IMG/VR virus record: IMGVR_UViG_3300020421_000026
Location: 1-54,370 of that record
Reading direction: 5' to 3' (one strand)
DNA length: 54,370 nt
DNA from: a virus
Taxonomy: Duplodnaviria > Caudoviricetes
Shown here piece by piece: positions 24,367 through 41,231 of this stretch. Positions within the stretch are counted from its first letter, which is position 1, and every line of letters begins with the position of its first letter. The position numbers were made by a program, and so were the translations under genes. The notes below the pieces were generated by a model. That model was not told the DNA's origin and searched no databases. It worked only from the letters and a program-made list of their open reading frames with translations.

Positions 24367-24443
24367 TGGCCCGCCCGGCAAGACTCGAACTTGCAACCTA
24401 CGGTTTAGAAGACCGTTGTTCTATCCAATTGAACTACGGGCGG
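24367..24443 (-). tRNA. tRNA-Arg (anticodon TCT)
   Basis: Acceptor CCGCCCG/CGGGCGG, anticodon arm ACGGT-CTTCTAA-ACCGT, GTTCGA T-loop, encoded CCA. Confidence 0.95.
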
Positions 24444-24450
24444 ATTGTTT

Positions 24451-25167
24451 TTAATCTACAAATGCCCTTTCTAGAACAAAGTCTCCTGGCTCACCTAGAT
24501 TTCCTTCTTGGAAACCTAAATTTTCAAAATAGTCCCTACATTCATAATTCATGTCTGGACCTCCACACACCATAACTCTATCAGTTTCTTTGTTAAATCC
24601 ACCATTAGTAAAGTTATCAATGTGTTCCCAAAAACGACCTTTACGCACATAATCGTCTTGTGTGCAAGTGTCGTAGTATGTTAAAGGAAATGTATTGCAC
24701 ATTTCTTGTATAACATCTGTGTAGGTATGCTCTGCATGTGTTCTTGTGGTATGACAGAGTATAACACTTTTGAACTTTTCATAAGTTTCTGGGTCTCTTA
24801 TAATACTCATAAAAGGTGCTATACCTGTCCCTGTTGATAGCAAATATAAGTTGTCTGCTTGTGTTACGTTATCAATCGTTAAAGTGCCGGTACACTTGGG
24901 GTTTACTAAAACTTCGTCTCCAACTTTTAAATGCTGTAAACGACTTGTAAGAGGTCCGTCGGGTACCTTAATACTTAAGAACTCCAACTCATCTTCGTAG
25001 TTTGCACTAGCAATACTGTATGCTCTTAGTAAAGGCTTTTCATCTACCCTTAATCCAATCATAGCAAACTCTCCGTTTACAAAACGAAAAGATTGATTTC
25101 TGGTTGTTTTAAAACTGAATGTTTTATCAGTCCAGTGATGTACCCATGTTACTGTTTCTGTGTTCAA
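24451..25167 (-). CDS. fpr: Ferredoxin(flavodoxin)-NADP+ reductase
   Basis: HHWTD..FSF, RAYSIAS, KVPDGPLTSRL, TGTGIAPF, VCGGPDM, ERAFVD. TTG start. Confidence 0.93.
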   Translation of the reverse strand: MNTETVTWVHHWTDKTFSFKTTRNQSFRFVNGEFAMIGLRVDEKPLLRAYSIASANYEDELEFLSIKVPDGPLTSRLQHLKVGDEVLVNPKCTGTLTIDNVTQADNLYLLSTGTGIAPFMSIIRDPETYEKFKSVILCHTTRTHAEHTYTDVIQEMCNTFPLTYYDTCTQDDYVRKGRFWEHIDNFTNGGFNKETDRVMVCGGPDMNYECRDYFENLGFQEGNLGEPGDFVLERAFVD

Positions 25168-25421
25168 TGTTTAGTCGCCTTAAATGATTCAATCATTGCA
25201 TTTCTAACTTCTGGATCTTTAAGTTTTTCTAAAAATTCAGCATTTATTTCAAAAGTCATGCCTTTTTCCATCTTTGATATCAAACTTAAATCATCAACGC
25301 CTAGCATAACACATACTTCTTCAAATGTCAATAAGTTCAAGCCTTTTTCTTTAGCATCTATCAACAAATCAAAAATTGCGTCTGTTATTAAATCTTCTAA
25401 ATCTTTATACTTTTCACTCAT
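25164..25421 (-). CDS. Small hypothetical protein
   Basis: 85-aa ORF between tRNA-Ala and fpr, with a GGTGA SD and a 4-nt overlap with fpr. Confidence 0.65.
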   Translation of the reverse strand: MSEKYKDLEDLITDAIFDLLIDAKEKGLNLLTFEEVCVMLGVDDLSLISKMEKGMTFEINAEFLEKLKDPEVRNAMIESFKATKH

Positions 25422-25432
25422 TTCTCACCACG

Positions 25433-25508
25433 TGGTGGAGCGGACAGGGGTCGAACCTGCGACCTTCTGGATGCAAACCAGACGCTCTCCCAACTGAGCT
25501 ACCGCCCC
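25433..25508 (-). tRNA. tRNA-Ala (anticodon TGC)
   Basis: GGGGCGG acceptor with G3:U70, anticodon arm TCTGG-TTTGCAT-CCAGA, GTTCGA, CCA. Confidence 0.95.
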
Positions 25509-25514
25509 AAACTT

Positions 25515-25697
25515 CTATCTATTCATTAAAGCCTTCATATTATTACCAATCCTTTCTGCATTGGCACTAACATTCTTTGCTATTTCTTCTGCGTTCTTTC
25601 TAATGTTCTCTGCTATTACTTCACCACTCCATGGGTTAGGTGTAACTTTGGATACCTTTTTTGTTTTAGCCTTTACTTTGGCTTTTGTTTTAGTCAT
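25515..25697 (-). CDS. Small basic hypothetical protein (60 aa)
   Basis: MTKTKAKVKAKTKK..., with an AGGA SD, an upstream GGTAAATA and a 5' hairpin. Confidence 0.55.
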   Translation of the reverse strand: MTKTKAKVKAKTKKVSKVTPNPWSGEVIAENIRKNAEEIAKNVSANAERIGNNMKALMNR

Positions 25698-25759
25698 TCT
25701 AATATTTCCTAATATATGATCCACTTTATTAAGTGGACTGCATATTTACCAGATAAATC

Positions 25760-25849
25760 TGGCGGAGAGTGAGAGATTCGAACTCTCGGTACAGTTACCC
25801 GTACTCTTCCTTAGCAGGGAAGTGCTTTAAGCCACTCAGCCAACTCTCC
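25760..25849 (-). tRNA. tRNA-Ser (anticodon GCT)
   Basis: GGAGAGT acceptor, anticodon arm CTTCC-CTGCTAA-GGAAG, long variable arm, GTTCGA, CCA. Confidence 0.95.
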
Positions 25850-31716: not shown

Positions 31717-33597
31717 TTACTTGTACAGTAATCTTTTAGCAGATTCACCATTTATAAGTGGTGCATATATTTTAACTGGTTCTTCTTTGCCTTTTACAGT
31801 TACACTACCCAATTTTTCATAAACAATGCCTGAAGGTTCCTTAAACTGATTTAATGTGAACTCACTAAACAGTATAGGAGTATCTTGTTTTCTAGTTTCT
31901 GCTTCTAATCTTGCACCCAAGTTTACAGCATCTCCAATCACACTATAATCTAATCTGTTTTCACTACCCATGTTTCCTACAATGCATGTTCCTGTGTTTA
32001 TACCTGTGCCAAATTTAACTCTTGGAAGTCCTAATTTTTCCATTTCTTTTTCTAATTCATCACCTAATAACTCAATTTCTATTGCACTCTTTAGAGCCAT
32101 GTCAGCATGATTATCACAAGGTATAGGTGCATTCCAAAAAGCCATAATACAGTCGCCCATGTACTTGTCTATAGTTCCCCCGTTGGCAAGTATAATTTTA
32201 GTCATCTTATCTAAGAAACTATTGATTAAATCTACTAACCCTTCAGGGTCATCTTGTTTCATAAACTTTTCTGATATAGGTGTAAAGCCTACAATGTCTG
32301 CAAATAGGAAACTCATCTCCCTTCTTTCACCACCCAACTTCATAAGACTTGGGTCTTTTACTAACATATTAACGTAATCTGGCGATATATACTTGCTGAA
32401 TTGACCTTTTATTTGCTGTCTTAGTCTGTATTGCTTGTAAAAATTGTTAAATGCACTATGAGTAAACACTAAAAATCCACTCAAAACTGGAAAAGTTGCA
32501 TCAATTAAGACCAGTTTATTGGTATAAAACCACACACTAGCATAGGCTTCTGTACCCAAAATCAGCATGGAAATTGGTGCTGTCCACACTAACGGTAACT
32601 TATAAACAGCAAAACCTATTAAAACCATGCTCATAAAAGCAACTAGAAGCTCTATAAAGGGCGATAACTCATTTCGTGTTATGTTACTACCATCTACAAA
32701 ATTTTGTAGCATATGGCCCTGTATTTGCTGTGGATACATGAGTCCTTTTGGAGTAGGTACAGCATTCTGTATGCCTTCTGCACTAACTCCTACTATAACA
32801 AATTTGCCTTTTAGGTCTGGTAGGCTCTGTATGTCCACATATTCTACTTCTTCAAACGTATTATTAAAACGTATAAAAGCAGTTCCGTTTGATTGTGATA
32901 CTATAGGTTCAAAAGGAGGTACAGCAAACTCTTGTATTCCTATTTCAGATGTTTTTAAGATATAACTGGGTTTTTGTGTATAAGTTCTCAACATCTCAAT
33001 AGCAAAACTAGGATATATTTTACCCTCAACTCCTATTGCTAATGGATATGTTCTAGTAACTAAATCAGGTTGTGGTGCTGATGCAAGTACGCCTATGCCT
33101 TCTGCATGTTCCTCAAGTGCTGGAATGTTTGTTACTAGGTTGGGCCAACTTAACAAAAAGTCCTGTGCTGGTAAAGGGCCTATTGTTCCTGTACCAATGT
33201 GCGGACCTGTACTCTTTACTCCTTTTGTACTTGGGGTCTGGGATAAAATCAGTCCGTTCCCCTTTATCCAACTCGCTAGTACTTCGTCCCCGCCGAACCG
33301 ATCCGCCTCCGGAAACATCACGGTCAATCCAATCATACCACCATTCTTCTGTCTGATATCGTGGATTAGTTGTGCAAAATTCTGTCTGGGCCATGGCCAT
33401 TGTCCCCATTGTTGTAAACTTTTTTCACCTATATTTATAATAACAACTTCGTCACTATTCTTAGGTTCATCTAGATTTTGTAATGCATCAAATGTTTGTA
33501 ATCTTAAACTTTGTAGTGGTGCTGGGTCAAAAACTTTTAATGTTGTTAGTAAACAAATTGTAAAAACGACTGCCCAGCCGCTGTAAAACCATTTCAT
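31717..33597 (-). CDS. CHASE2-domain class III adenylate cyclase
   Basis: N-terminal TM, CHASE2 signature GQWPWPR, three TM helices, then cyclase motifs FADIVGFT, IDKYMGD, YSVIGDAVNLGARLE, VKGK. Confidence 0.93.
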   Translation of the reverse strand: MKWFYSGWAVVFTICLLTTLKVFDPAPLQSLRLQTFDALQNLDEPKNSDEVVIINIGEKSLQQWGQWPWPRQNFAQLIHDIRQKNGGMIGLTVMFPEADRFGGDEVLASWIKGNGLILSQTPSTKGVKSTGPHIGTGTIGPLPAQDFLLSWPNLVTNIPALEEHAEGIGVLASAPQPDLVTRTYPLAIGVEGKIYPSFAIEMLRTYTQKPSYILKTSEIGIQEFAVPPFEPIVSQSNGTAFIRFNNTFEEVEYVDIQSLPDLKGKFVIVGVSAEGIQNAVPTPKGLMYPQQIQGHMLQNFVDGSNITRNELSPFIELLVAFMSMVLIGFAVYKLPLVWTAPISMLILGTEAYASVWFYTNKLVLIDATFPVLSGFLVFTHSAFNNFYKQYRLRQQIKGQFSKYISPDYVNMLVKDPSLMKLGGERREMSFLFADIVGFTPISEKFMKQDDPEGLVDLINSFLDKMTKIILANGGTIDKYMGDCIMAFWNAPIPCDNHADMALKSAIEIELLGDELEKEMEKLGLPRVKFGTGINTGTCIVGNMGSENRLDYSVIGDAVNLGARLEAETRKQDTPILFSEFTLNQFKEPSGIVYEKLGSVTVKGKEEPVKIYAPLINGESAKRLLYK

Positions 33598-33613
33598 GCA
33601 TGTATTTATTATA

Positions 33614-34519
33614 TTAATCTTGAGTTATTGTAATAGAACAGCCACCAGCAGTTTGACAAGTCTGGTTGAGGTTGTAAGATTGTGCTGTACCACTCATTTG
33701 TATTAAGTTTAATGTTGTTGGTTGTGATCCGTATAATGTGATATTGGCAGTATGAGCACCATTACCTTTTTGTACACCACTGATTTGACTACCGTTTTGA
33801 TAACTTTTATAATTTACAGTTTTGTTTCCGTCGTTGATTTGCTTCCACCAAATATCCTGATTGTTACCATATATCCAAATGTTTGCAGTATGGTATCCTG
33901 GATTACTTGTATTACCATTTGTTTGATAACCAGCAATAACATTATTGTCTCCGTGATAGTCTAAAATTGCTTTATGTCCACCGTGTTCTGAACTATCGCC
34001 TGTATCAAAGTCTGTATCATTTATGTTAGTAAGACCAACACCTTGACCCCATCTCATTAGATTGTTGTCTCCCCAAACGTGAAAACCTGCTTCTGTATAT
34101 TGACAACTGCCATCTTCTGTACACTTCTGTTTAATGTAAATATCATTATCAACACCATCTACATCTCCACAGAATGTTGCATTATTACAATTTACTTTAC
34201 CCCATGTGCTAGTAAATCCAGCAAAATTATTTTGTCCTTCTTGAGCAATTTTAACTAGATTACCATCACCTGATACAGAAAATTCAACCTCGTTGTCTTC
34301 TCCTAGTTGTCCAATCCACATAGTTAAATTATCAACATTACCGTATTGTAATCCTAAGTCTAAATCTATGTGTTGGTCTTTTCCTTCTTGGGAAATTGTT
34401 AAATCTAAGTTGTCGCCAACTTGGTCAATATGAACATGATTGTGCCCTTCTCCAGCAAACAAATCAAAACTTGCTGTTGCACAAAAAATTCCTAACAATG
34501 TTGCATATATAAATTTCAT
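33614..34519 (-). CDS. Curlin-repeat secreted protein (CsgA/CsgB-like)
   Basis: Signal peptide and repeated x-I-x-Q-x-G-x-x-N units (IDQVGDN, IGQLGEDN, IAQEGQNN). Cys pairs are present. Confidence 0.72.
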   Translation of the reverse strand: MKFIYATLLGIFCATASFDLFAGEGHNHVHIDQVGDNLDLTISQEGKDQHIDLDLGLQYGNVDNLTMWIGQLGEDNEVEFSVSGDGNLVKIAQEGQNNFAGFTSTWGKVNCNNATFCGDVDGVDNDIYIKQKCTEDGSCQYTEAGFHVWGDNNLMRWGQGVGLTNINDTDFDTGDSSEHGGHKAILDYHGDNNVIAGYQTNGNTSNPGYHTANIWIYGNNQDIWWKQINDGNKTVNYKSYQNGSQISGVQKGNGAHTANITLYGSQPTTLNLIQMSGTAQSYNLNQTCQTAGGCSITITQD

Positions 34520-35721
34520 TAATCCACCTGTATAATTGTGATGAATGTTCCTTCACAATCATTTAAACATATTGTAGCATCTTTTAAATTACTGTCTTCT
34601 ACAAATATTTGGGCACTATTACCTGAGTTTATTCTAACACTAACTGTATTTGTTACTTGTCTAAAAAAGAATAATTTTCCATCTTCTAAGACTGTGTTAA
34701 ATTGTGTTTCAGGGTCAAACCCAATAGCAGTACCTGTAATTTTGTCTGCGGCAATACTGCCTTCAGATTCGCTACCACCTTCTTTTTTCTCTTCTCCTAC
34801 ACTCACTTCTTCTATTGATTCAAGCAAGTCTTGTAAAAAATCAACATCTAGAAAATTTATATCTAGTGTTGTAAATTCTAAATCTTCTGTTGTGTCTGCT
34901 AACACATCTGCTTCAATGGCATTAGCATCTAATCCATCAAAGTCTAAAAGTCCAGCATCACCTTTTGCTTCTTCTTGTTGCTCCTCAACTGCTTCTTTTA
35001 TTTCACTTGGTTCACTTACAATAAACATGTTATCAATCATGTTTAAGTCTAAATCAGCAAGTAAAACAGGATTTGTTGGAGCCTGTTCTAATGTACTAAC
35101 CATAACAGCCTGAAAGGCTTCTGTTAATACTTGCACACCACCGTCATTTGTTATTGTTATACTACCTGACGGTCTGCACCCTTCTTCTAATTTTACTGTA
35201 TCTGTACAACCTGAGTCTGGTAATAATATTACTAGACTTCTTCCTAACTCGTCAACTGTTGTTGTAAAGTCAGTACCCCTAATACCTATTGTGGCTGTAG
35301 GAGTTTGTACAACTATATTTTCTTTAGGTACTAATCCCAATCCGCCTGTGGCAAAACGTGCTGTTCCTTGCACAAAATCTAATGCCATCCTACTCTTACT
35401 TGGATCAGGATCGTACACATACTCATTAATAACCATATATGTGTGTTCAGTTAAACTAACTTGTGTATCATCTATGAATTTTAATTTTAAACGACCATTT
35501 ATCGTTTCAACTTCATCATTGCTTTGTATGTCTGTGTCTAGTTCTGCAATCAATCTTTCACCAGACGTTCTACTAATACTGCCAGGCGAGCCCACTTGCT
35601 CTAATATCCCGCCGATGCTCTCATTGGCACCGGCGGAAATACTGTATGTTGCACTAAACAACAAAAATGCATATAAACAAACTTTAGTCAGTTTGTCTAA
35701 TTGAAACTGAAGCATTTTCAC
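34519..35721 (-). CDS. FecR-domain exported protein
   Basis: Signal/TM, then D.VET..G.L.L.F.DDTQV.L..H, GTARF, QTPTATIGIRGTDF. Acidic C-terminal half. Confidence 0.85.
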   Translation of the reverse strand: MKMLQFQLDKLTKVCLYAFLLFSATYSISAGANESIGGILEQVGSPGSISRTSGERLIAELDTDIQSNDEVETINGRLKLKFIDDTQVSLTEHTYMVINEYVYDPDPSKSRMALDFVQGTARFATGGLGLVPKENIVVQTPTATIGIRGTDFTTTVDELGRSLVILLPDSGCTDTVKLEEGCRPSGSITITNDGGVQVLTEAFQAVMVSTLEQAPTNPVLLADLDLNMIDNMFIVSEPSEIKEAVEEQQEEAKGDAGLLDFDGLDANAIEADVLADTTEDLEFTTLDINFLDVDFLQDLLESIEEVSVGEEKKEGGSESEGSIAADKITGTAIGFDPETQFNTVLEDGKLFFFRQVTNTVSVRINSGNSAQIFVEDSNLKDATICLNDCEGTFITIIQVD

Positions 35722-36502
35722 TGTCTAAATCAACGTCTATTTTACCAGGACATGCAGGACTACAAGTAGCCGCATTACTTTGTAAGAATTGAAAATCACC
35801 GTCTGACCCTACTAAAACAAATTTTAAGTAGTGGTTAGCATTACCTGTTTGGTTAGATGTGATAGCATTATCATCACCCGTGATATTCATTTCCCAAGTT
35901 GCGGAACCGGAGTCTACTTTAACACCACTTTGTGAAAAAGCAGATGTGTTATTCCAATCAGAACCAGGAGTACCACTCCATGCTTTTGAGTTTGAAACAG
36001 CATTCCTAAAGTCGTTCCTGTCACCTAGTATCGTCAAATCCATATTAAGGTTGTCTGCGGCAAAGTTTGCACCAATATCTATATCAAAAATGTTTGTATC
36101 ACCTTGAATGTTCCAAAGCATATCAACATTATCTGCACTACCAGATGCACCTATGTTTAAATCTAATGAATTAGAATCTCCTAAAAAGTAGAAATCCCAT
36201 ACAGTTGATCCAGAACCGTCTCCAGTCCATGCACCAAATATTTCATTACCATCACCGTCTTGAATGATATCAATAATCAAATTAGATCCTGTGATAACTA
36301 AATCGCTACCGTCACCAGCATCACCTGATATCTTGTTAGCACTACCAGCCTGTAATATGGTCAAAGTTAGATTATCCCCTTGTTGGTCTAATAAAACTTC
36401 GTTGTCGTCAGCACCTATGGCAGGAGCAAATAATCCTACTGTTAGGCCCATGACTGCGAAGACATTGATTGCAAAATTTTTAAATAAATTTTTAGTCTTC
36501 AT
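35684..36502 (-). CDS. Curlin-repeat secreted protein (CsgA/CsgB-like)
   Basis: Signal peptide and repeats LDQQGDN, ILQAGSAN, IIQDGDGN, SNQTGNAN. A GGAG SD favours ATG 36502. Confidence 0.72.
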   Translation of the reverse strand: MKTKNLFKNFAINVFAVMGLTVGLFAPAIGADDNEVLLDQQGDNLTLTILQAGSANKISGDAGDGSDLVITGSNLIIDIIQDGDGNEIFGAWTGDGSGSTVWDFYFLGDSNSLDLNIGASGSADNVDMLWNIQGDTNIFDIDIGANFAADNLNMDLTILGDRNDFRNAVSNSKAWSGTPGSDWNNTSAFSQSGVKVDSGSATWEMNITGDDNAITSNQTGNANHYLKFVLVGSDGDFQFLQSNAATCSPACPGKIDVDLDSENASVSIRQTD

Positions 36503-37472
36503 CATTTTCTCCATTTTTCTTCAGGAGCATTTTCTCCCAAAGTTTTTTATCGGCTTTAAGATCCTCTTCTTCTATATCAACTTGCATCCATGTTGCGTTT
36601 TCGTCCTCTGATAATTCTTGAACGTCCCACCCTTCAGGATACACAATTTTCCAATAGCCTCTCTCATCGCCTTGTTGTATCAATGCCAATACCGCGGCTT
36701 CAATAGCCGAACGTACTGCCCATGTAACACTTTCGTTCTCTGTCATACCACTTTCTAATTCAAGAAGTTTTGTGTCCATGTCTAAAAATCTAAACACATC
36801 TCCTCCTATCCCTGTACTCAAAATGGTTTTGTATGTCTGTACGTTGAGTAACACTTCGCCCGTGAGTGTGCTTACGGCTCTCAGTGATACAACAACACTA
36901 TCTCTTCGATATTGATTAGTTGTTCCAATACCTAGATATCTTGCCCCATTACCTCCAGTTTCAATATTAGTGTCATATCCAATGATACCACCTTCTAATA
37001 TCATACCTGCAAATAATAGCGGTTGGACTCCTTCTGCTGGTTTTTCGTCTGTGGCAAATTGTTCACGAGTACTTCGAACAATTTGTCTTTCTCGCACAAG
37101 GTTGTCTAGTCCTAAACCTCTTTCTACAACTCTAAACCACGTGCCTTTAGGATCATCCTTAGCACCTGCGGCTTTTAAAGAGTCAATTAATAAATCTTTT
37201 GCACCTTGCGTAACTGCGGTGCTGAAACTTGCAACTCCATCTGAACTCATCCTTTGTCCAGTTAAGTCGTCAAATTTGTAAACTGCAACCACTGGCTTTA
37301 CTTCTGCTGGTGGCAAGTTTCTTAGTTTCTTATATGTGGGTAATTCAACGAATTTTGGTTCTTCAATACATTCTAATAATGACGTATTGCAGACTTTGTC
37401 GCCAGGTATGGAAATGCTGGCGCATCCGCTAATTAGCAAAGCAAATATTACTGCTATAATTCCATTTTTCAA
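36492..37472 (-). CDS. csgG: Curli secretion channel CsgG (lipoprotein)
   Basis: Lipobox LISGC, VAVYKF.D.TGQ, FSTAVTQG, WFRVVER.GL.NL.RERQI, EGGIIGYD, GARYLGIG, AIEAAV. Confidence 0.93.
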   Translation of the reverse strand: MKNGIIAVIFALLISGCASISIPGDKVCNTSLLECIEEPKFVELPTYKKLRNLPPAEVKPVVAVYKFDDLTGQRMSSDGVASFSTAVTQGAKDLLIDSLKAAGAKDDPKGTWFRVVERGLGLDNLVRERQIVRSTREQFATDEKPAEGVQPLLFAGMILEGGIIGYDTNIETGGNGARYLGIGTTNQYRRDSVVVSLRAVSTLTGEVLLNVQTYKTILSTGIGGDVFRFLDMDTKLLELESGMTENESVTWAVRSAIEAAVLALIQQGDERGYWKIVYPEGWDVQELSEDENATWMQVDIEEEDLKADKKLWEKMLLKKNGENDED

Positions 37473-37475
37473 TTT

Positions 37476-37976
37476 TTATCCGCCTAATGTTCCAATTCCG
37501 ATAGGTATTTCTATTTCAGTAATTGTTCCATCTGCGTCAACAATAGTTAGTCTAATGTATTCTATTCCATCTACTGTAACTACCGTGTATGAGACGTTAC
37601 TGTCCTCAATAGTAAATGCACCTTCGGTAGAATTGGTACAAGTTGGTACTTCTGCTGGATTACAAAACATACTATCAACCAATCCCTTAGAAATTTGTGA
37701 ATAAATCCTACTCTCCAAATTTCTAATAAATTTGTTAATTGTGCTGTTATTTTCCAATCTATCTGCCGCTCTAAGAGCCGCTTCTATATCATCTGCTATT
37801 TTATCTTTTCTGCTCTTTTCCTGATTTTCAATCGTAAGGTAATGAGCACCGGTTCCTATTCCACTAAAACTTGGATTTTTAAACTTATGTTTTAGTTGGT
37901 CAGCAAACACGGTTTGTGATGCAAAAAATGCCAACATGACTACAATTCCTAAATGTGTTCCTGTTATCTTCATCAT
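37476..37976 (-). CDS. csgF: Curli assembly component CsgF
   Basis: Signal peptide, then H.FKNPSFSG, F..NL.SRI.SQ and a C-terminal DG.ITEIEIP. Adjacent to csgG. Confidence 0.85.
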   Translation of the reverse strand: MMKITGTHLGIVVMLAFFASQTVFADQLKHKFKNPSFSGIGTGAHYLTIENQEKSRKDKIADDIEAALRAADRLENNSTINKFIRNLESRIYSQISKGLVDSMFCNPAEVPTCTNSTEGAFTIEDSNVSYTVVTVDGIEYIRLTIVDADGTITEIEIPIGIGTLGG

Positions 37977-38278
37977 TTTTTCTTCTTTTGTTGAGACATT
38001 TCCCTTTCAGCGAGTGCCTCTTTTTCCTCTGCGTCTTGCAAAATTTCTTGCCGTGTTCTATACTCTAACACAACATCTACTTTTTGTTGCAAACGAATTA
38101 AGTCTTGGTCCAACATTCTTGTTTGGTCTATAACTCTTATAAGAGCCATATGCATCTTTCCTAATGCTGGTTTTATTTCCGTATTAATATATTTCCATAC
38201 ATAGTATATAAAATATCCTAAGCCTACACAGGCTACGACCGGAAAACCATATTGTGAAATTAATGCCGCTATGTCCAT
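37973..38278 (-). CDS. Small single-TM coiled-coil protein (GFP-motif, YvrJ-like)
   Basis: LISQYGFPVVACVGLGYFIYY followed by a helical tail. ATGA-coupled to csgF. Confidence 0.7.
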   Translation of the reverse strand: MDIAALISQYGFPVVACVGLGYFIYYVWKYINTEIKPALGKMHMALIRVIDQTRMLDQDLIRLQQKVDVVLEYRTRQEILQDAEEKEALAEREMSQQKKKK

Positions 38279-38580
38279 TAATCTCTCCTTACATCGAGTT
38301 TACCGTCCTCAATAAAGTTTTCTGCCCGGGCTACCCGTTCGATATCAGGTCTTAACTCCAATGCACTACTGACTAACATATCGATTTTAATCATCTCGTT
38401 ACTCATAGTTCTTGCTCTATTTTCTAAGGATTCGCAAAACTTAGTCAATGTTTCGACCTGACCGACGACGCCAGCCATTAATTGCTTAATTATAATAAAA
38501 ATAAAATATCCCATTACGATTGCTCCGGCAATAGGGAATCCTACTTCTGCTATTAATTGAAATACTTCTTTCATCTGCAC
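38278..38580 (-). CDS. Small single-TM coiled-coil protein, paralog of the downstream gene
   Basis: LIAEVGFPIAGAIVMGYFIF followed by a helical tail. TAATG-coupled. Confidence 0.7.
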   Translation of the reverse strand: MQMKEVFQLIAEVGFPIAGAIVMGYFIFIIIKQLMAGVVGQVETLTKFCESLENRARTMSNEMIKIDMLVSSALELRPDIERVARAENFIEDGKLDVRRD

Positions 38581-38659
38581 ACTCTGTTTGTTTATAATTC
38601 TATTTTTGTAGTGTGATGTATGTGTTACTCTACAAGTAAGACTCTAGGTCTTACGTTCT

Positions 38660-38667
38660 TATTTATC
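38660..38667 (-). promoter_or_regulatory. Late-promoter motif heading the curli/FecR/cyclase cluster
   Basis: GATAAATA followed after 5 nt by the hairpin GTAAGAC-N5-GTCTTAC. Confidence 0.65.
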
Positions 38668-38828
38668 AATTTTTCTGGTAAAAATTTACATCTATATAAG
38701 AAACTGGCATAAATAAACTTGTAACATGATTGTAACATTACGTTGCAGAACATTTTTGTAATACCCATTAGGGCTGATACAATAACAATGTGTGTAGCAA
38801 TTATTTACATCACAATCGGAGAAGAAAA

Positions 38829-38954
38829 ATGGCGAAATCCTTAGGAATAGTAGCCAATGCAACTCAACGTTTTGCTTTGGACTACTTTAGAAAATTTGAC
38901 TCGATGATGAAATCTGGCTCTATAGAAAGAGTTTTAGAAGACGCATTATTTTAG
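38829..38954 (+). CDS. 41-aa small protein, not in the ORF track
   Basis: GGAG SD, MAKSLGIVANATQRFALDYFRKFDSMMKSGSIERVLEDALF, upstream CATAAATA and downstream terminator. Confidence 0.65.
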   Translation: MAKSLGIVANATQRFALDYFRKFDSMMKSGSIERVLEDALF

Positions 38955-38960
38955 TCAGTC

Positions 38961-38992
38961 AAAAAAAAGCACCCATAAAGGGTGCTTTTTTT
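38961..38992. terminator. Bidirectional Rho-independent terminator
   Basis: A8-GCACCC-ATAAA-GGGTGC-T7 between convergent genes. Confidence 0.9.
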
Positions 38993-39005
38993 AATTTTGT
39001 TTTTA

Positions 39006-41231
39006 TTACATCATATTAACTAAAACTTCAATAACACCTTCTCCACTATCAATAGAACCTATTGCTTTACCAATTATTCTACCTGGGCCTGCATTATTAT
39101 CTGCTTTAGCATGACCTTCAACACCTGAAGCAACCATTAAGTCACCTTTAGCAACTGGACCAACTACTTTACAAGGAACCCTTCCTGTTAAAGCAACGTA
39201 TTGTCCTTCTGCATCTGCGTTCATCATGTATGCTGGATCTGTACTAATAACACCTGCAACTCTGTGGTCAAGTTCTTCGCCACATGCAGTAACTTCAGAC
39301 TCTCCTCCAAAGCATACTACAGTACCTGCTTCATATTCTGCATCACTTTCGTATTTCTCAGCCAAATCCGCGTATCTTGCCGCTGTTGCTGTACCTACAA
39401 AGAACGATGCGGCAACATTTGCTGTTGTAGTAACATTACCTGCCAAACTAGTCATTGCGCCAGTGTAACCTGTAATTCTTGCGTCTGCTCTTGCGTTGGT
39501 GTAATATAAGTTTGTTGAACCTTCTGATAAATTATCAGTGTCAAATGCACCCATGTTTACAGCAACGTCATCAGCATTTACAGTAATACCTGTACCTGCT
39601 CCAATGTTTAATGTAACTGCACCTGAAGTACCGCCACCTGTTAAACCTGATCCTGCTGTAACACCTTCAATGTCACCTGCGTCATTAGTAAAACTAATTA
39701 CACCTGTTGAACTGTTATATGAAATATCACCACTTGCACTAAGAGCCGCTCTTGCTCTTGCAGTTGTGAAGTATTGATTGTCGCCTTCTGTGATATCAGT
39801 TGTTGTTAATGCTTCAGCAATAGTAATTGTTCCTGCGGAATCATCATATGTTACACTGATGTTACCTGAACCAGACATAATAGCACCAACTCTGTCATCT
39901 ACTCTCTCATTGGTATAGTAAAGGTTTGAACCTTCTGCTAAATCGCCTGTATCTTGATTAGAAATATCTAAGTTTGTACCAACTTGTAATGCAATTCTGG
40001 CATCTGCTCTTGCTGATGTATGGTAAAGATTACTTGAACCTTCTGACAATGAGTCAGTGTCTGCCGCCGCAATCTTAACATCAAATCTAGCATCTGCTCT
40101 TGCTGATGTATGGTAAAGATTACTTGAACCTTCACTAAGTGCATCTGTATCAGCCGCCGCTATCCTGGCATCTGCTCTTGCGTTTGTGAAGTATAAGTTT
40201 GTTGAACCTTCTGCTAAAGCATCTGTGCCAGTTGCTATAGAATAATATGTTGTTCCATCATTTGTGAATTGCCATACGTCTGAAGTTTCGTTCCATTGTA
40301 AAAATACATCTGCACTACTTCCTCTGTTTACTTGTAAACCTGCGTTCTCACTTGGAGAACCACTGGCATCTCTGTTCAATTCAACAATGTTATCTGCCAA
40401 ACTTGCTGTTGTTGTATTAACAATAGTGTTCGTACCATTAACTGTTAAGTCACCGCTAATAACAACGTCACTACTAAATGTTTTTGCACCGCCAACAGTT
40501 TGGTCTCCAGTTGTTCTAACAACTGTACTGTCTGCGGTAAGTGTTGCTCCAGATATATCTATACCTGAGCCACCTGTTAAATATGTTGCACCATCAACGT
40601 ATGCCTTTCTTGCGGCATCGTTAGCCTGTGCTGGTGCTGGTAAATTATTAATTGAATTACTGTTTATATTAATGTTTGACCCCATTGTCAAACCACCAGT
40701 ACCTGTAAGTACTTGTCCACTATCAATTGTGATTGCACTTTGTAAATTAATTACACCAGTACCACTTGCGTTTAATTCAACGTCACCTGATCCTGAAGTT
40801 ATAATGCCAACGTTTTGGTTAGCATCTGCACTAAGTTGAATTGTACCTGAATTATCTTCAATAACTTTTTGTCCATTAACATAAAGTGATCCTGGACCAA
40901 CGTACAAGTCTCGCCATTGTTTACTTGATGAACCTAAGTCATATGTAACATCTGCTGAAGGTAAAATATGTTGTGCTACTGCTGAACCATCAAATGCTAG
41001 TGATACAGCACCTGACGTGCCTCCACCAGATAAACTTGATCCTGCCGTAACGGCTGTAATATCACCTGCTTGTATGTCTGAAAATTTTGCTAGTCTATGC
41101 CCACCTGCTGTTGAACCATCGTGGACCCTAATGGTATCTAAATCTGTATCTACGGTAATCTCACCTACTAGTCCTGTGAATGAACTGTGTTGGGAGGTTG
41201 TACCTCGTCTCCATTGGATTGCTGTTGCCAT
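39006..41231 (-). CDS. Fibre-like virion protein (Mtd-N-like N-terminus, repeats, peptidase-G2/chaperone-like C-terminus)
   Basis: IQWRRGTT..H..FTG..GEITVDTD....VHDG.TAGG, multiple TD.L.EG..NLY.T..RA repeats, ARYADLAE.Y C-terminal domain. Confidence 0.75.
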   Translation of the reverse strand: MATAIQWRRGTTSQHSSFTGLVGEITVDTDLDTIRVHDGSTAGGHRLAKFSDIQAGDITAVTAGSSLSGGGTSGAVSLAFDGSAVAQHILPSADVTYDLGSSSKQWRDLYVGPGSLYVNGQKVIEDNSGTIQLSADANQNVGIITSGSGDVELNASGTGVINLQSAITIDSGQVLTGTGGLTMGSNININSNSINNLPAPAQANDAARKAYVDGATYLTGGSGIDISGATLTADSTVVRTTGDQTVGGAKTFSSDVVISGDLTVNGTNTIVNTTTASLADNIVELNRDASGSPSENAGLQVNRGSSADVFLQWNETSDVWQFTNDGTTYYSIATGTDALAEGSTNLYFTNARADARIAAADTDALSEGSSNLYHTSARADARFDVKIAAADTDSLSEGSSNLYHTSARADARIALQVGTNLDISNQDTGDLAEGSNLYYTNERVDDRVGAIMSGSGNISVTYDDSAGTITIAEALTTTDITEGDNQYFTTARARAALSASGDISYNSSTGVISFTNDAGDIEGVTAGSGLTGGGTSGAVTLNIGAGTGITVNADDVAVNMGAFDTDNLSEGSTNLYYTNARADARITGYTGAMTSLAGNVTTTANVAASFFVGTATAARYADLAEKYESDAEYEAGTVVCFGGESEVTACGEELDHRVAGVISTDPAYMMNADAEGQYVALTGRVPCKVVGPVAKGDLMVASGVEGHAKADNNAGPGRIIGKAIGSIDSGEGVIEVLVNMM
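40000..40133. repeat. Perfect 44-bp direct repeat within the fibre gene (90-nt period)
   Basis: gcatctgctcttgctgatgtatggtaaagattacttgaaccttc at 40000-40043 and 40090-40133. Confidence 0.9.

Follow-up and report, generated by a model that had tools for sequence, protein, structure and literature searches.

Phages that infect very abundant marine bacteria have been found to carry curli secretion genes, and these phages hold the closest described relatives of the cluster considered here. A curli operon in pelagimyophages was reported in 2020 with its function called unclear (PMC7029224), and in 2022 a lysis-timing pore was proposed for the corresponding genes of the phage Melnitz (PMC9004378). 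In the same year a type VIII secretion system together with FecR and an adenylate cyclase was described in pelagiphages (PMC9599517). According to that description a second curlin gene and a gene for an adenylate cyclase often come after the FecR gene, in both podo- and myo-pelagiphages, with detection in metatranscriptomes, and viral curli proteins occur at all 65 ocean virome stations, making up ~0.1 % of the assembled viral proteins. Each of the three papers calls the function of the cluster a mystery. Here we analyse a cluster of this kind at positions 31717-38580 of IMG/VR virus record IMGVR_UViG_3300020421_000026, a viral contig fragment of 54,370 nucleotides (nt), the whole of which is referred to below as the window. 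The cluster is already known in kind, and the window adds a further marine pelagiphage-type member. What is new is that the sensor of the cyclase is a CHASE2 domain, that the FecR protein appears PupR-like in fold and CHASE2-associated in lineage, that the pair has a parallel in bacterial modules, and that the histidine kinase label given to the small upstream proteins is unsupported. The term CHASE2 has 0 occurrences in each of the main texts of the three papers, and none of the papers that a literature search found to treat CHASE2 together with FecR is about phages.

The cluster consists of eight open reading frames (ORFs) on the minus strand, in the order small protein A, small protein B, CsgF, CsgG, curlin-like 1, FecR-domain protein, curlin-like 2 and CHASE2-cyclase (A-B-F-G-C1-R-C2-AC; Table 1). 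The ORF calls and the Pfam matches bear out the identities and the order given in an initial annotation made from the letters of the DNA, including the two small transmembrane proteins at the head of the cluster, each of which has an N-terminal hydrophobic segment. That annotation had put every junction at 16 nt or less, which holds for five of them and fails for two: from A onwards there are overlaps of 1 and 4 nt, a gap of 3 nt, overlaps of 23, 38 and 1 nt and a gap of 16 nt. These lengths are those of the longest-ORF calls, and later start codons would reduce the 23- and 38-nt overlaps. The coupling of the genes is tight. The annotation's statement that csgF and csgG have been reported in marine SAR11 myophages agrees with PMC7029224 and with the annotation of HTVC008M. 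It also knew of no characterised phage system joining csgFG to FecR and a cyclase; the joining itself is already present in PMC9599517 and in GenBank, and it was right in so far as the system described there is experimentally uncharacterised.

A tblastn search with the FecR protein against 50,697 deposited phage records found only Pelagibacter phage HTVC008M and four Methylophilales Melnitz phages, with identities of 41.7 % to HTVC008M and 36.6 % to Melnitz over ~57 % of the length. Both carry the same eight-gene order, with the GenBank names CsgF, CsgG, curlin-associated, 'FecR domain protein' and 'adenylate/guanylate cyclase'. The window shares with these phages, and with uncultured HTVC023P-type podophages, the order, the PHROG families and a marine T4-like (Kyanoviridae-type) background. 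It is distant from them in sequence, however, with similarity at the DNA level to HTVC008M- and Melnitz-type phages limited to 7 % of the region, and CheckV suggests a much larger genome. The cyclase of the window follows curlin-like 2 after 16 nt, whereas many relatives have inserts at this place.

Related viral loci were collected in two surveys, one seeded with FecR (112 viral stretches encode a relative; the best 80 hits were taken and 79 loci kept) and the other with csgG (the best 80 of 127 relatives kept). The surveys share contigs, and they reach relatives with at least ~58 % CsgG identity. The order A-B-F-G-C1-R-C2-AC is found in all 79 FecR-seeded loci as far as the contigs reach, the only deviations being a missing or an extra curlin hit (L073 and L013, and L001 by tblastn). 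Among the csgG-seeded loci, those with at least 1.5 kb upstream all have CsgF (72/72) and all have A or B (72/72), FecR is present in 60/60 of those that extend at least 2.5 kb downstream, and 34/36 of those that extend at least 6 kb downstream have the cyclase. The initial annotation had made its proposal depend on FecR and cyclase genes accompanying csgFG in other genomes, and this is what these counts show. The arrangement is far above chance: wherever the contigs extend far enough, each related viral locus shows this order again.

The secretion part of the cluster resembles the curli system of Escherichia coli (CsgA-G) in having CsgG, CsgF and curlin-repeat substrates. It differs in having no CsgE that could be found and in adding FecR, the CHASE2-cyclase and the two small membrane proteins. 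The CsgG protein scores 161.9 bits against a Pfam cut-off of 20.8, and its residues 43-276 align to solved structures of E. coli CsgG (8.2e-45). Its N-terminus carries a lipobox, L-I-S-G-C, a pattern found by regular expression in 48 of 70 family members, and its C-terminus an acidic extension of ~50 residues. CsgF scores 44.2 bits (cut-off 25.8). Directly after its signal peptide it has an F-x-N-P-x-F motif in register with E. coli CsgF, to which the pairwise alignment is otherwise weak (E 0.78), and the same motif is present in 44 of 69 members of the family. The N-terminal segment of CsgF is the part that binds CsgG. Curlin-like 2 has three stretches matching Curlin_rpt (26.1 bits, cut-off 20.7), and curlin-like 1 reaches 18 bits, below the same cut-off; the two families are homologous to one another by hhalign (99.7 %, E 3.3e-25). 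Taken together, these matches predict a lipoprotein pore of CsgG capped by CsgF, and two curlin-repeat proteins exported by the Sec pathway.

The initial annotation had recognised no csgC, csgD or csgE. For CsgE (PF10627) this stands: nothing in the window matched it at E<=0.1, and the control in E. coli was positive; CsgC and CsgD were not found in the Pfam scan of the eight cluster proteins, no separate search for them having been made. CsgE is reported to be missing from many non-enterobacterial systems as well (PMC9599517), and the F-G-curlin order of the phage resembles that of the non-enterobacterial curli loci L138 and L139. CsgF was found in 10 of 151 bacterial genomes, the tenth being a mis-binned phage contig, and the remaining nine loci were examined with profiles of the phage families. 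CsgG was matched in 9/9 of these, and both curlin family profiles matched curlin-like genes beside csgFG in 8/9, with E-values down to 2e-25 for the curlin-like 2 profile. The phage curlin-like proteins thus appear, by these profile comparisons, to be true homologues of the fibre genes beside bacterial csgFG. The same profiles found FecR, the CHASE2-cyclase, A and B in 0/9 of the loci within 8 kb of the curli genes. In the sampled loci both the joining of the curli and FecR-CHASE2 modules and the two small proteins are specific to the phages.

The FecR protein (Pfam FecR 37.9 bits, cut-off 24) can be divided into a signal peptide, a FecR/PupR-like beta domain at ~35-235, an acidic region at ~227-325 and a C-terminal beta domain at 328-398. 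Judging from the alignment and the model, its first ~30 residues probably form a cleaved signal peptide: an n-region is followed by a hydrophobic core and then by small residues that precede a conserved I-G-G/D. The AlphaFold2 model (predicted local distance difference test, pLDDT, 71.7) was compared with solved structures using VIA-align. Over model residues 66-257 it matches the C-terminal cell-surface signalling domain of PupR (6ovk_R; Z 15.0, root mean square deviation 5.2, 159 aligned), and it also matches 4m0n (Z 13.3, root mean square deviation 2.8, 136 aligned). The model therefore predicts a PupR-like cell-surface-signalling fold for the phage FecR domain. A match of residues 33-106 to the 'cell surface anchoring domain' 5ix9 (Z 6.7) lies under the trustworthy level and was not used. 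In PupR the C-terminal domain contacts the outer-membrane transducer, as seen in the solved complex.

The acidic region is modelled with low confidence and is strongly conserved, with 30 acidic and 5 basic residues in 95 positions and invariant motifs of the N-M-I-D-N-M-F-I-V and L-D-x-D-F-L repeat type. Folded alone, the C-terminal domain gives a six-strand beta sandwich (pLDDT 93) that has no convincing match among 48,161 PDB representatives (best Z 3.6). The FecR, curlin-1 and curlin-2 families all end in I/V-x-I/V-x-Q. We considered whether the FecR C-terminus might be a curlin-like repeat and rejected this, since the hhalign probability was only 7.5 % with curlin-2 (E 0.0047) and 1.1 % with curlin-1 (E 0.047).

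The phage protein shares with the FecA-FecR-FecI and PupB-PupR systems the fold of its periplasmic domain, and in other respects it departs from them. Only the signal peptide precedes the FecR domain, leaving no membrane anchor or cytoplasmic anti-sigma domain, and a search confined to the eight genes of the cluster found neither an extracytoplasmic function sigma factor nor a TonB-dependent transducer. A profile of the phage FecR N-domain takes 9 of 10 CHASE2-adjacent FecR proteins at E<=0.01, seven of them below 1e-5, and 0 of the 10 best-scoring canonical (~320-residue) FecR proteins at E<0.1. Because the profile takes the CHASE2-adjacent proteins and skips the canonical ones, the phage protein is assigned to the CHASE2-associated FecR lineage and not to the iron-signalling anti-sigma type.

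In the cyclase protein the CHASE2 domain covers residues 16-327 (138.5 bits, cut-off 26.3) and the Guanylate_cyc domain residues 427-607 (60.5 bits, cut-off 21.9). Hydrophobic segments lie at 314-332 and 362-380, and an N-terminal one was read from the sequence. Among solved structures the closest chains are those of adenylate cyclases (6fht, 1.8e-32; CyaB of Pseudomonas aeruginosa, 3r5g, 5.6e-32). All seven canonical class III positions are kept, D434, K478, D482, D550, N559, R563 and K602, which we take to be the metal-binding Asp pair, the Lys/Asp adenine pair and the Asn/Arg/Lys transition-state and phosphate residues. Of these positions, five do not vary among 22/22 phage cyclases, and the other two, the adenine-Asp and the Asn, are conserved in 18/22. 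We thus predict a sensor protein of the inner membrane in which CHASE2 is joined to an adenylate cyclase whose catalytic residues are intact. A complex prediction for FecR (residues 32-235) with the periplasmic domain of CHASE2 (24-311), run without controls, gave a score of 0.20 (mark 0.32) and is evidence neither way.

The FecR alignment was scanned against 185,579 species genomes and gave 12 loci. Eleven of these (L083-L093) carry the whole phage-type cluster on marine GTDB contigs of metagenome-assembled genomes (MAGs) from unrelated phyla, assigned to Rhodobacterales, Synechococcus, Saprospirales, Pelagibacter, Planctomycetaceae and others. Most probably these contigs are phage DNA that was mis-binned into bacterial genomes, and they were not counted as bacterial occurrences of the cluster. 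In the sole cellular locus, a Vicinamibacteria contig (L094), a FecR-like gene lies directly before a CHASE2-cyclase-like gene. In a sample drawn at phylum level, 101 of 151 genomes have CHASE2, and its neighbours were examined over 5 kb to each side of the best hit in 40 distinct genomes, five hits nearer than 3 kb to a contig start having been skipped. When up to two same-strand ORFs were taken upstream of each CHASE2 gene, 76 in all, FecR was the Pfam family seen most often (7), ahead of HD/GAF (5), TPR_19 (3), SlipAM (2) and cNMP_binding (2). Among the 77 downstream ORFs FecR is not one of the 25 families listed. Among the matches listed, at least ~34 of 150 CHASE2 places have FecR within 5 kb, where ~1 would be expected by chance; the coordinates were compared by hand and 150 of the 329 FecR matches were listed, hence the lower bound.

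The phage FecR N-domain profile recognises several of these upstream neighbours: L126 (3.5e-20), L097 (1.3e-18), L136 (3.4e-14), L133 (3.8e-14) and L125 (1.8e-5). The modules that they belong to are built in different ways. In L126 a TPR protein, FecR and a CHASE2-cyclase follow one another; in L133 and L136 a SlipAM+TPR_Slam outer-membrane barrel lies between FecR and the CHASE2-cyclase; in L097 a FecR+cadherin protein is followed by a CHASE2-cyclase; and in L125 a LysM-FecR protein is followed by a CHASE2 histidine kinase. In the window FecR likewise lies one gene upstream of CHASE2, as in L133 and L136. Published examples are the CHASE2-cyclase clusters of Campylobacterota with FecR, TPR and phosphodiesterase genes (PMC9239204) and the BiofilmReg operon of Burkholderia, with LysM-FecR and a CHASE2 kinase (PMC5192318). 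What the bacterial modules have in common with the phage is a secreted FecR protein just upstream of a CHASE2 sensor, often with a class III cyclase, and a shared plan of the FecR protein, with a signal peptide, the FecR domain, a low-complexity linker and a variable C-terminal domain. They differ in carrying Slam-like/TPR outer-membrane, phosphodiesterase (HD/GAF) or cNMP-binding genes instead of csgFG and curlins, and the C-terminal domain and acidic motifs of the phage FecR have no counterpart in the bacterial CHASE2-adjacent relatives.

The link from FecR to CHASE2 is independently supported because bacterial FecR genes adjoin CHASE2 genes and the phage profile recognises them. From the synteny in bacteria and phages we infer that FecR and CHASE2 work together, and the bacterial synteny suggests that the phages took over their FecR and CHASE2 cyclase as a sensing pair from bacteria, where such a pair is often encoded beside an outer-membrane translocon or barrel. 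By analogy a third partner would be an outer-membrane translocon, which in bacteria may be the Slam-like/TPR protein and for which NsrA provides a genetic precedent. In Sinorhizobium meliloti this outer-membrane beta-barrel is reported to be required for the response of CHASE2 cyclases to an external protein signal, and the NsrA-dependent signal is found in crude bacterial and yeast extracts as well (PMC7529298, PMC13001267). The pathway from NsrA through CyaK/CyaD1/CyaD2 to Clr has the same logic as a trans-envelope reading of the phage cluster, with the difference that NsrA is not CsgG. In the phage, CsgG/CsgF and the curlin substrates would fill the position of the outer-membrane translocon.

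Trans-envelope signalling by the cluster, which the initial annotation had proposed, is plausible. In the coupled form that we favour, tentatively and at somewhat less than an even chance, the cell would build the CsgG/CsgF pore late in infection and export the curlin-like subunits through it. FecR in the periplasm would respond to the condition of the pore or fibre, or to an external cue that reaches it, and convey this to the CHASE2 domain, which would thereby set the synthesis of cyclic AMP (cAMP). FecR would act within the secretion or fibre apparatus too, for example as an adaptor or gate replacing CsgE. We suggest this second role because FecR is kept without the cyclase and has phage-specific acidic motifs and an extra domain.

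Several results weigh against this coupled model. Among the FecR-seeded loci with at least 2 kb after curlin-2, 54/62 have the cyclase and 8/62 lack it with FecR intact, and in 19/54 more than 400 nt of other genes lie between curlin-2 and the cyclase. Since the cyclase is lost in some loci and displaced in others, FecR cannot be only a relay to it. The pairing in bacteria is frequent and not obligatory, only ~1/4 of the CHASE2 genes having a FecR neighbour, and in S. meliloti the FecR-domain neighbour gene smc02177 is reported not to be needed for perception of the signal. Four of the 22 cyclases (L015, L022, L026, L062) carry Ser at both the adenine-Asp and the transition-state Asn, and these may have changed specificity or be inactive. 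A further difficulty lies with the reader of cAMP. The S. meliloti pathway is read by the CRP-type Clr, whereas a search for the cNMP-binding domain found no equivalent in the phages: there is none in the window, the search in phages having been for this domain and not for other cAMP-binding folds such as GAF, and it occurs in 0/5 related records (the complete HTVC008M and Melnitz, two large contigs and one Pelagibacter MAG). In sampled genomes of the Pelagibacter family (G005-G065) the domain occurs in only 2/61 and a class III cyclase in 3/61, one of the latter being a mis-binned phage contig. This family is largely without recognisable cAMP signalling. If the window's host is SAR11-like, cAMP would be made without a recognisable reader, and this is a serious gap.

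The loci in which the cyclase is missing (L006, L007, L009, L011, L024, L025, L027, L028) carry instead a small membrane protein, a lipoprotein of ~95 residues, a T/N-rich secreted protein of 450-550 residues and a secreted protein of ~1070 residues, which may be an alternative set of outputs or cargo. The junction of curlin-2 and the cyclase is an insertion hot-spot, with a recurrent pair of a small membrane protein and a small lipoprotein as well as other ORFs (L003, L008, L013-L017, L019-L023, L026, L032, L062, L067, L071, L074, L075).

A stronger version of the coupled model, which we consider distinctly unlikely, takes the whole module as an envelope-spanning sense organ built by the phage, with the CsgG/CsgF pore and its curlin-like fibres presenting a surface or pore state to the outside, FecR reporting this state to the cyclase and cAMP being read by an unrecognised phage receptor in hosts without cAMP signalling of their own. 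The acidic segment of FecR would then perhaps engage the pore in place of CsgE. If this were true, the cell late in infection would sense its neighbours, released cell contents or superinfection and adjust the timing of lysis or aggregation. The bacterial sensor made of outer-membrane translocon, FecR and CHASE2 cyclase would have been rebuilt on a type VIII secretion chassis. The NsrA-dependent CHASE2 cyclases of S. meliloti are reported to sense free ribosomal protein, which would be a parallel to the sensing of released cell contents.

Among the rival explanations the one that survives best, though we think it somewhat unlikely, is that the cluster is a fibre factory only. A curli-like amyloid would cover the infected cell, for aggregation (sibling capture), as a shield against superinfection or to retain progeny; FecR would stand in for CsgE or CsgB in the periplasm, as a chaperone, adaptor or nucleator, and the cyclase a loosely attached and dispensable regulator. 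This hypothesis is already published (PMC7029224, PMC9599517), and the invariant core A-B-F-G-C1-R, with FecR in 60/60 loci and a cyclase that is missing in 8/62 and displaced in 19/54, is what it would lead one to expect. The homology of the curlin-like proteins to bacterial fibre genes and the lack of a CsgE match in the window also fit, as do the acidic region and C-terminal domain that the FecR protein has beyond its bacterial CHASE2-adjacent relatives. A dispensable cyclase is harder to reconcile with a FecR of the CHASE2-associated lineage and with a cyclase kept in 34/36 and 54/62 loci, which argues for selection on the pair. The likeness of the FecR C-terminus to curlins was moreover not established by hhalign or by the fold search, and Melnitz is described without clumping in cytograms or transmission electron microscopy (PMC9004378).

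The lysis-timing pore published for Melnitz (PMC9004378) seems to us very unlikely here. CsgG/CsgF would be a gated outer-membrane channel, secretin- or pinholin-like, that contributes to triggering or timing lysis, with A and B as holin/antiholin-like partners and the sensor pair setting the timing. The late-type promoter context would suit this, and A and B do match a holin family, phrog_4898 (2.8e-4 and 1.1e-5), but the matches are weak and partial, being confined to the N-terminal hydrophobic segment. An outer-membrane pore would not depolarise the inner membrane, the two conserved curlin-repeat substrates would be left unexplained, and no lysis genes were identified beside the cluster among the 10 flanking proteins compared. 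That an ungated CsgG imports cofactors or siderophores, with FecR as an iron-dependent regulator as in Fec, was raised in PMC9599517 and PMC7029224 and would agree with the CsgE gate not being found in the window, but it is extremely unlikely given a FecR protein without a cytoplasmic anti-sigma domain, whose profile takes 0/10 canonical against 9/10 CHASE2-adjacent proteins, and it leaves CsgF and the curlin-like substrates unexplained.

Reading FecR and the cyclase as a bacterial-type CHASE2 sensing pair redirects which experiments make sense, since the FecR protein would not be an iron regulator nor the small upstream proteins histidine kinases. Melnitz, which can be grown on the OM43 host H5P1, or HTVC008M, which can be grown on HTCC1062, would also offer a compact and culturable model for CHASE2, a sensor domain that has been described without a known signal (PMC5192318).

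Small proteins A and B are paralogues that match the same family, phrog_18771 (6.2e-27 and 2.7e-26). The tail of A is helical and charged, the whole protein is free of histidine, and 53 of the 68 members of the small-protein family are likewise histidine-free. In PMC9599517 the small upstream proteins are labelled histidine kinases. No Pfam family is matched by A or B at E<=0.1, HisKA and HATPase_c included, and with lengths of 100-101 residues and no histidine in A the label is unsupported; its basis may lie in the supplements of that paper. An Atlas search with A found only viral hypothetical proteins in the nearest clusters, and the automatic name 'MotA/TolQ/ExbB' on one cluster near A has no Pfam support.

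The cluster appears to be placed in the late structural block behind a late-promoter-like motif. The initial annotation had the cluster headed by a phage late motif, which is correct only in an approximate form: the exact T4 late motif TATAAATA occurs twice in the whole window (6.7 expected), neither time upstream of the cluster, where the one-mismatch forms GATAAATA and TATAAACA are present. Among the relatives, 49/65 loci have TATAAATA with at most one mismatch in the 100 nt upstream of their first gene, 21 of them exact, against a background of ~14 % of random 100-nt segments of the same loci (1.5 % for exact matches). Downstream of GATAAATA the hairpin and the GTAGAG..TAACA box are common to the window's clade and form a possible conserved 5' leader element. 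An Rfam search of 38400-39050 gave no family at the gathering score, and its weak matches all fall on the terminator hairpin.

Five marine RNA-library runs contain 5-7 % of the sampled words of the region. Contigs identical to the window come from run X1 (33403-33550, 36810-37031 and 37930-38121) and run X2 (33906-34053 and 34293-34565), and run X5 has a 1,259-nt contig of a ~93 % relative, at 35263-36521, that takes in curlin-1 together with the start of FecR and the end of CsgG. The X1 and X2 matches are from the RNA libraries of two studies; they are contigs in which DNA carry-over is possible and which give neither strand nor transcript ends. They are consistent with, without proving, the transcription reported in PMC9599517.

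Table 1. Features of the curli-FecR-CHASE2 cluster and its upstream region in the window
Feature	Position	Strand	Description
Small membrane protein A	38278..38580	-	100 residues; ORF, phrog_18771
Small membrane protein B	37973..38278	-	101 residues; paralogue of A, phrog_18771
CsgF-like protein	37476..37976	-	signal peptide; Pfam CsgF 2.6e-11; phrog_35372 4e-39
CsgG outer-membrane lipoprotein (predicted)	36492..37472	-	326 residues; Pfam CsgG 1.7e-47
Curlin-like repeat protein 1	35684..36514	-	276 residues, signal peptide; Curlin_rpt 0.0029, below cut-off
Secreted FecR-domain protein (predicted)	34519..35721	-	400 residues; Pfam FecR 2.6e-9
Curlin-like repeat protein 2	33614..34519	-	301 residues, signal peptide; Curlin_rpt 8.2e-6
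CHASE2 + class III adenylate cyclase (predicted)	31717..33597	-	626 residues; CHASE2 3.9e-40, Guanylate_cyc 2e-16
Upstream leader	38581..38680	-	GATAAATA 38660-38667, hairpin 38636-38654, GTAGAG..TAACA box 38621-38635, TATAAACA 38589-38596
Intrinsic-terminator-like hairpin	38962..38992	.	13-pair stem then T run; upstream cluster boundary, ends preceding tail-fibre-like gene

The cluster closes a minus-strand block that also holds major-head, structural and tail-fibre-like genes. Its flanks include head, tail-fibre and sheath genes, and the neighbouring gene at 39006-41231 matches tail and structural PHROGs. Between the leader and the terminator that ends the tail-fibre-like gene there is a small divergent ORF (38790-38954, plus strand), 54 residues long in the longest call. 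CheckV gives a completeness of 11 % for the 54-kb window and of 66 % for a related 250-kb contig (L016), which implies genomes of ~0.4-0.5 Mb for the window's clade, compared with 147 kb for HTVC008M, and the clade may be jumbo relatives of pelagimyophages. The window also has three phage tRNA genes at 24367-25849, for Arg(tct), Ala(tgc) and Ser(gct).

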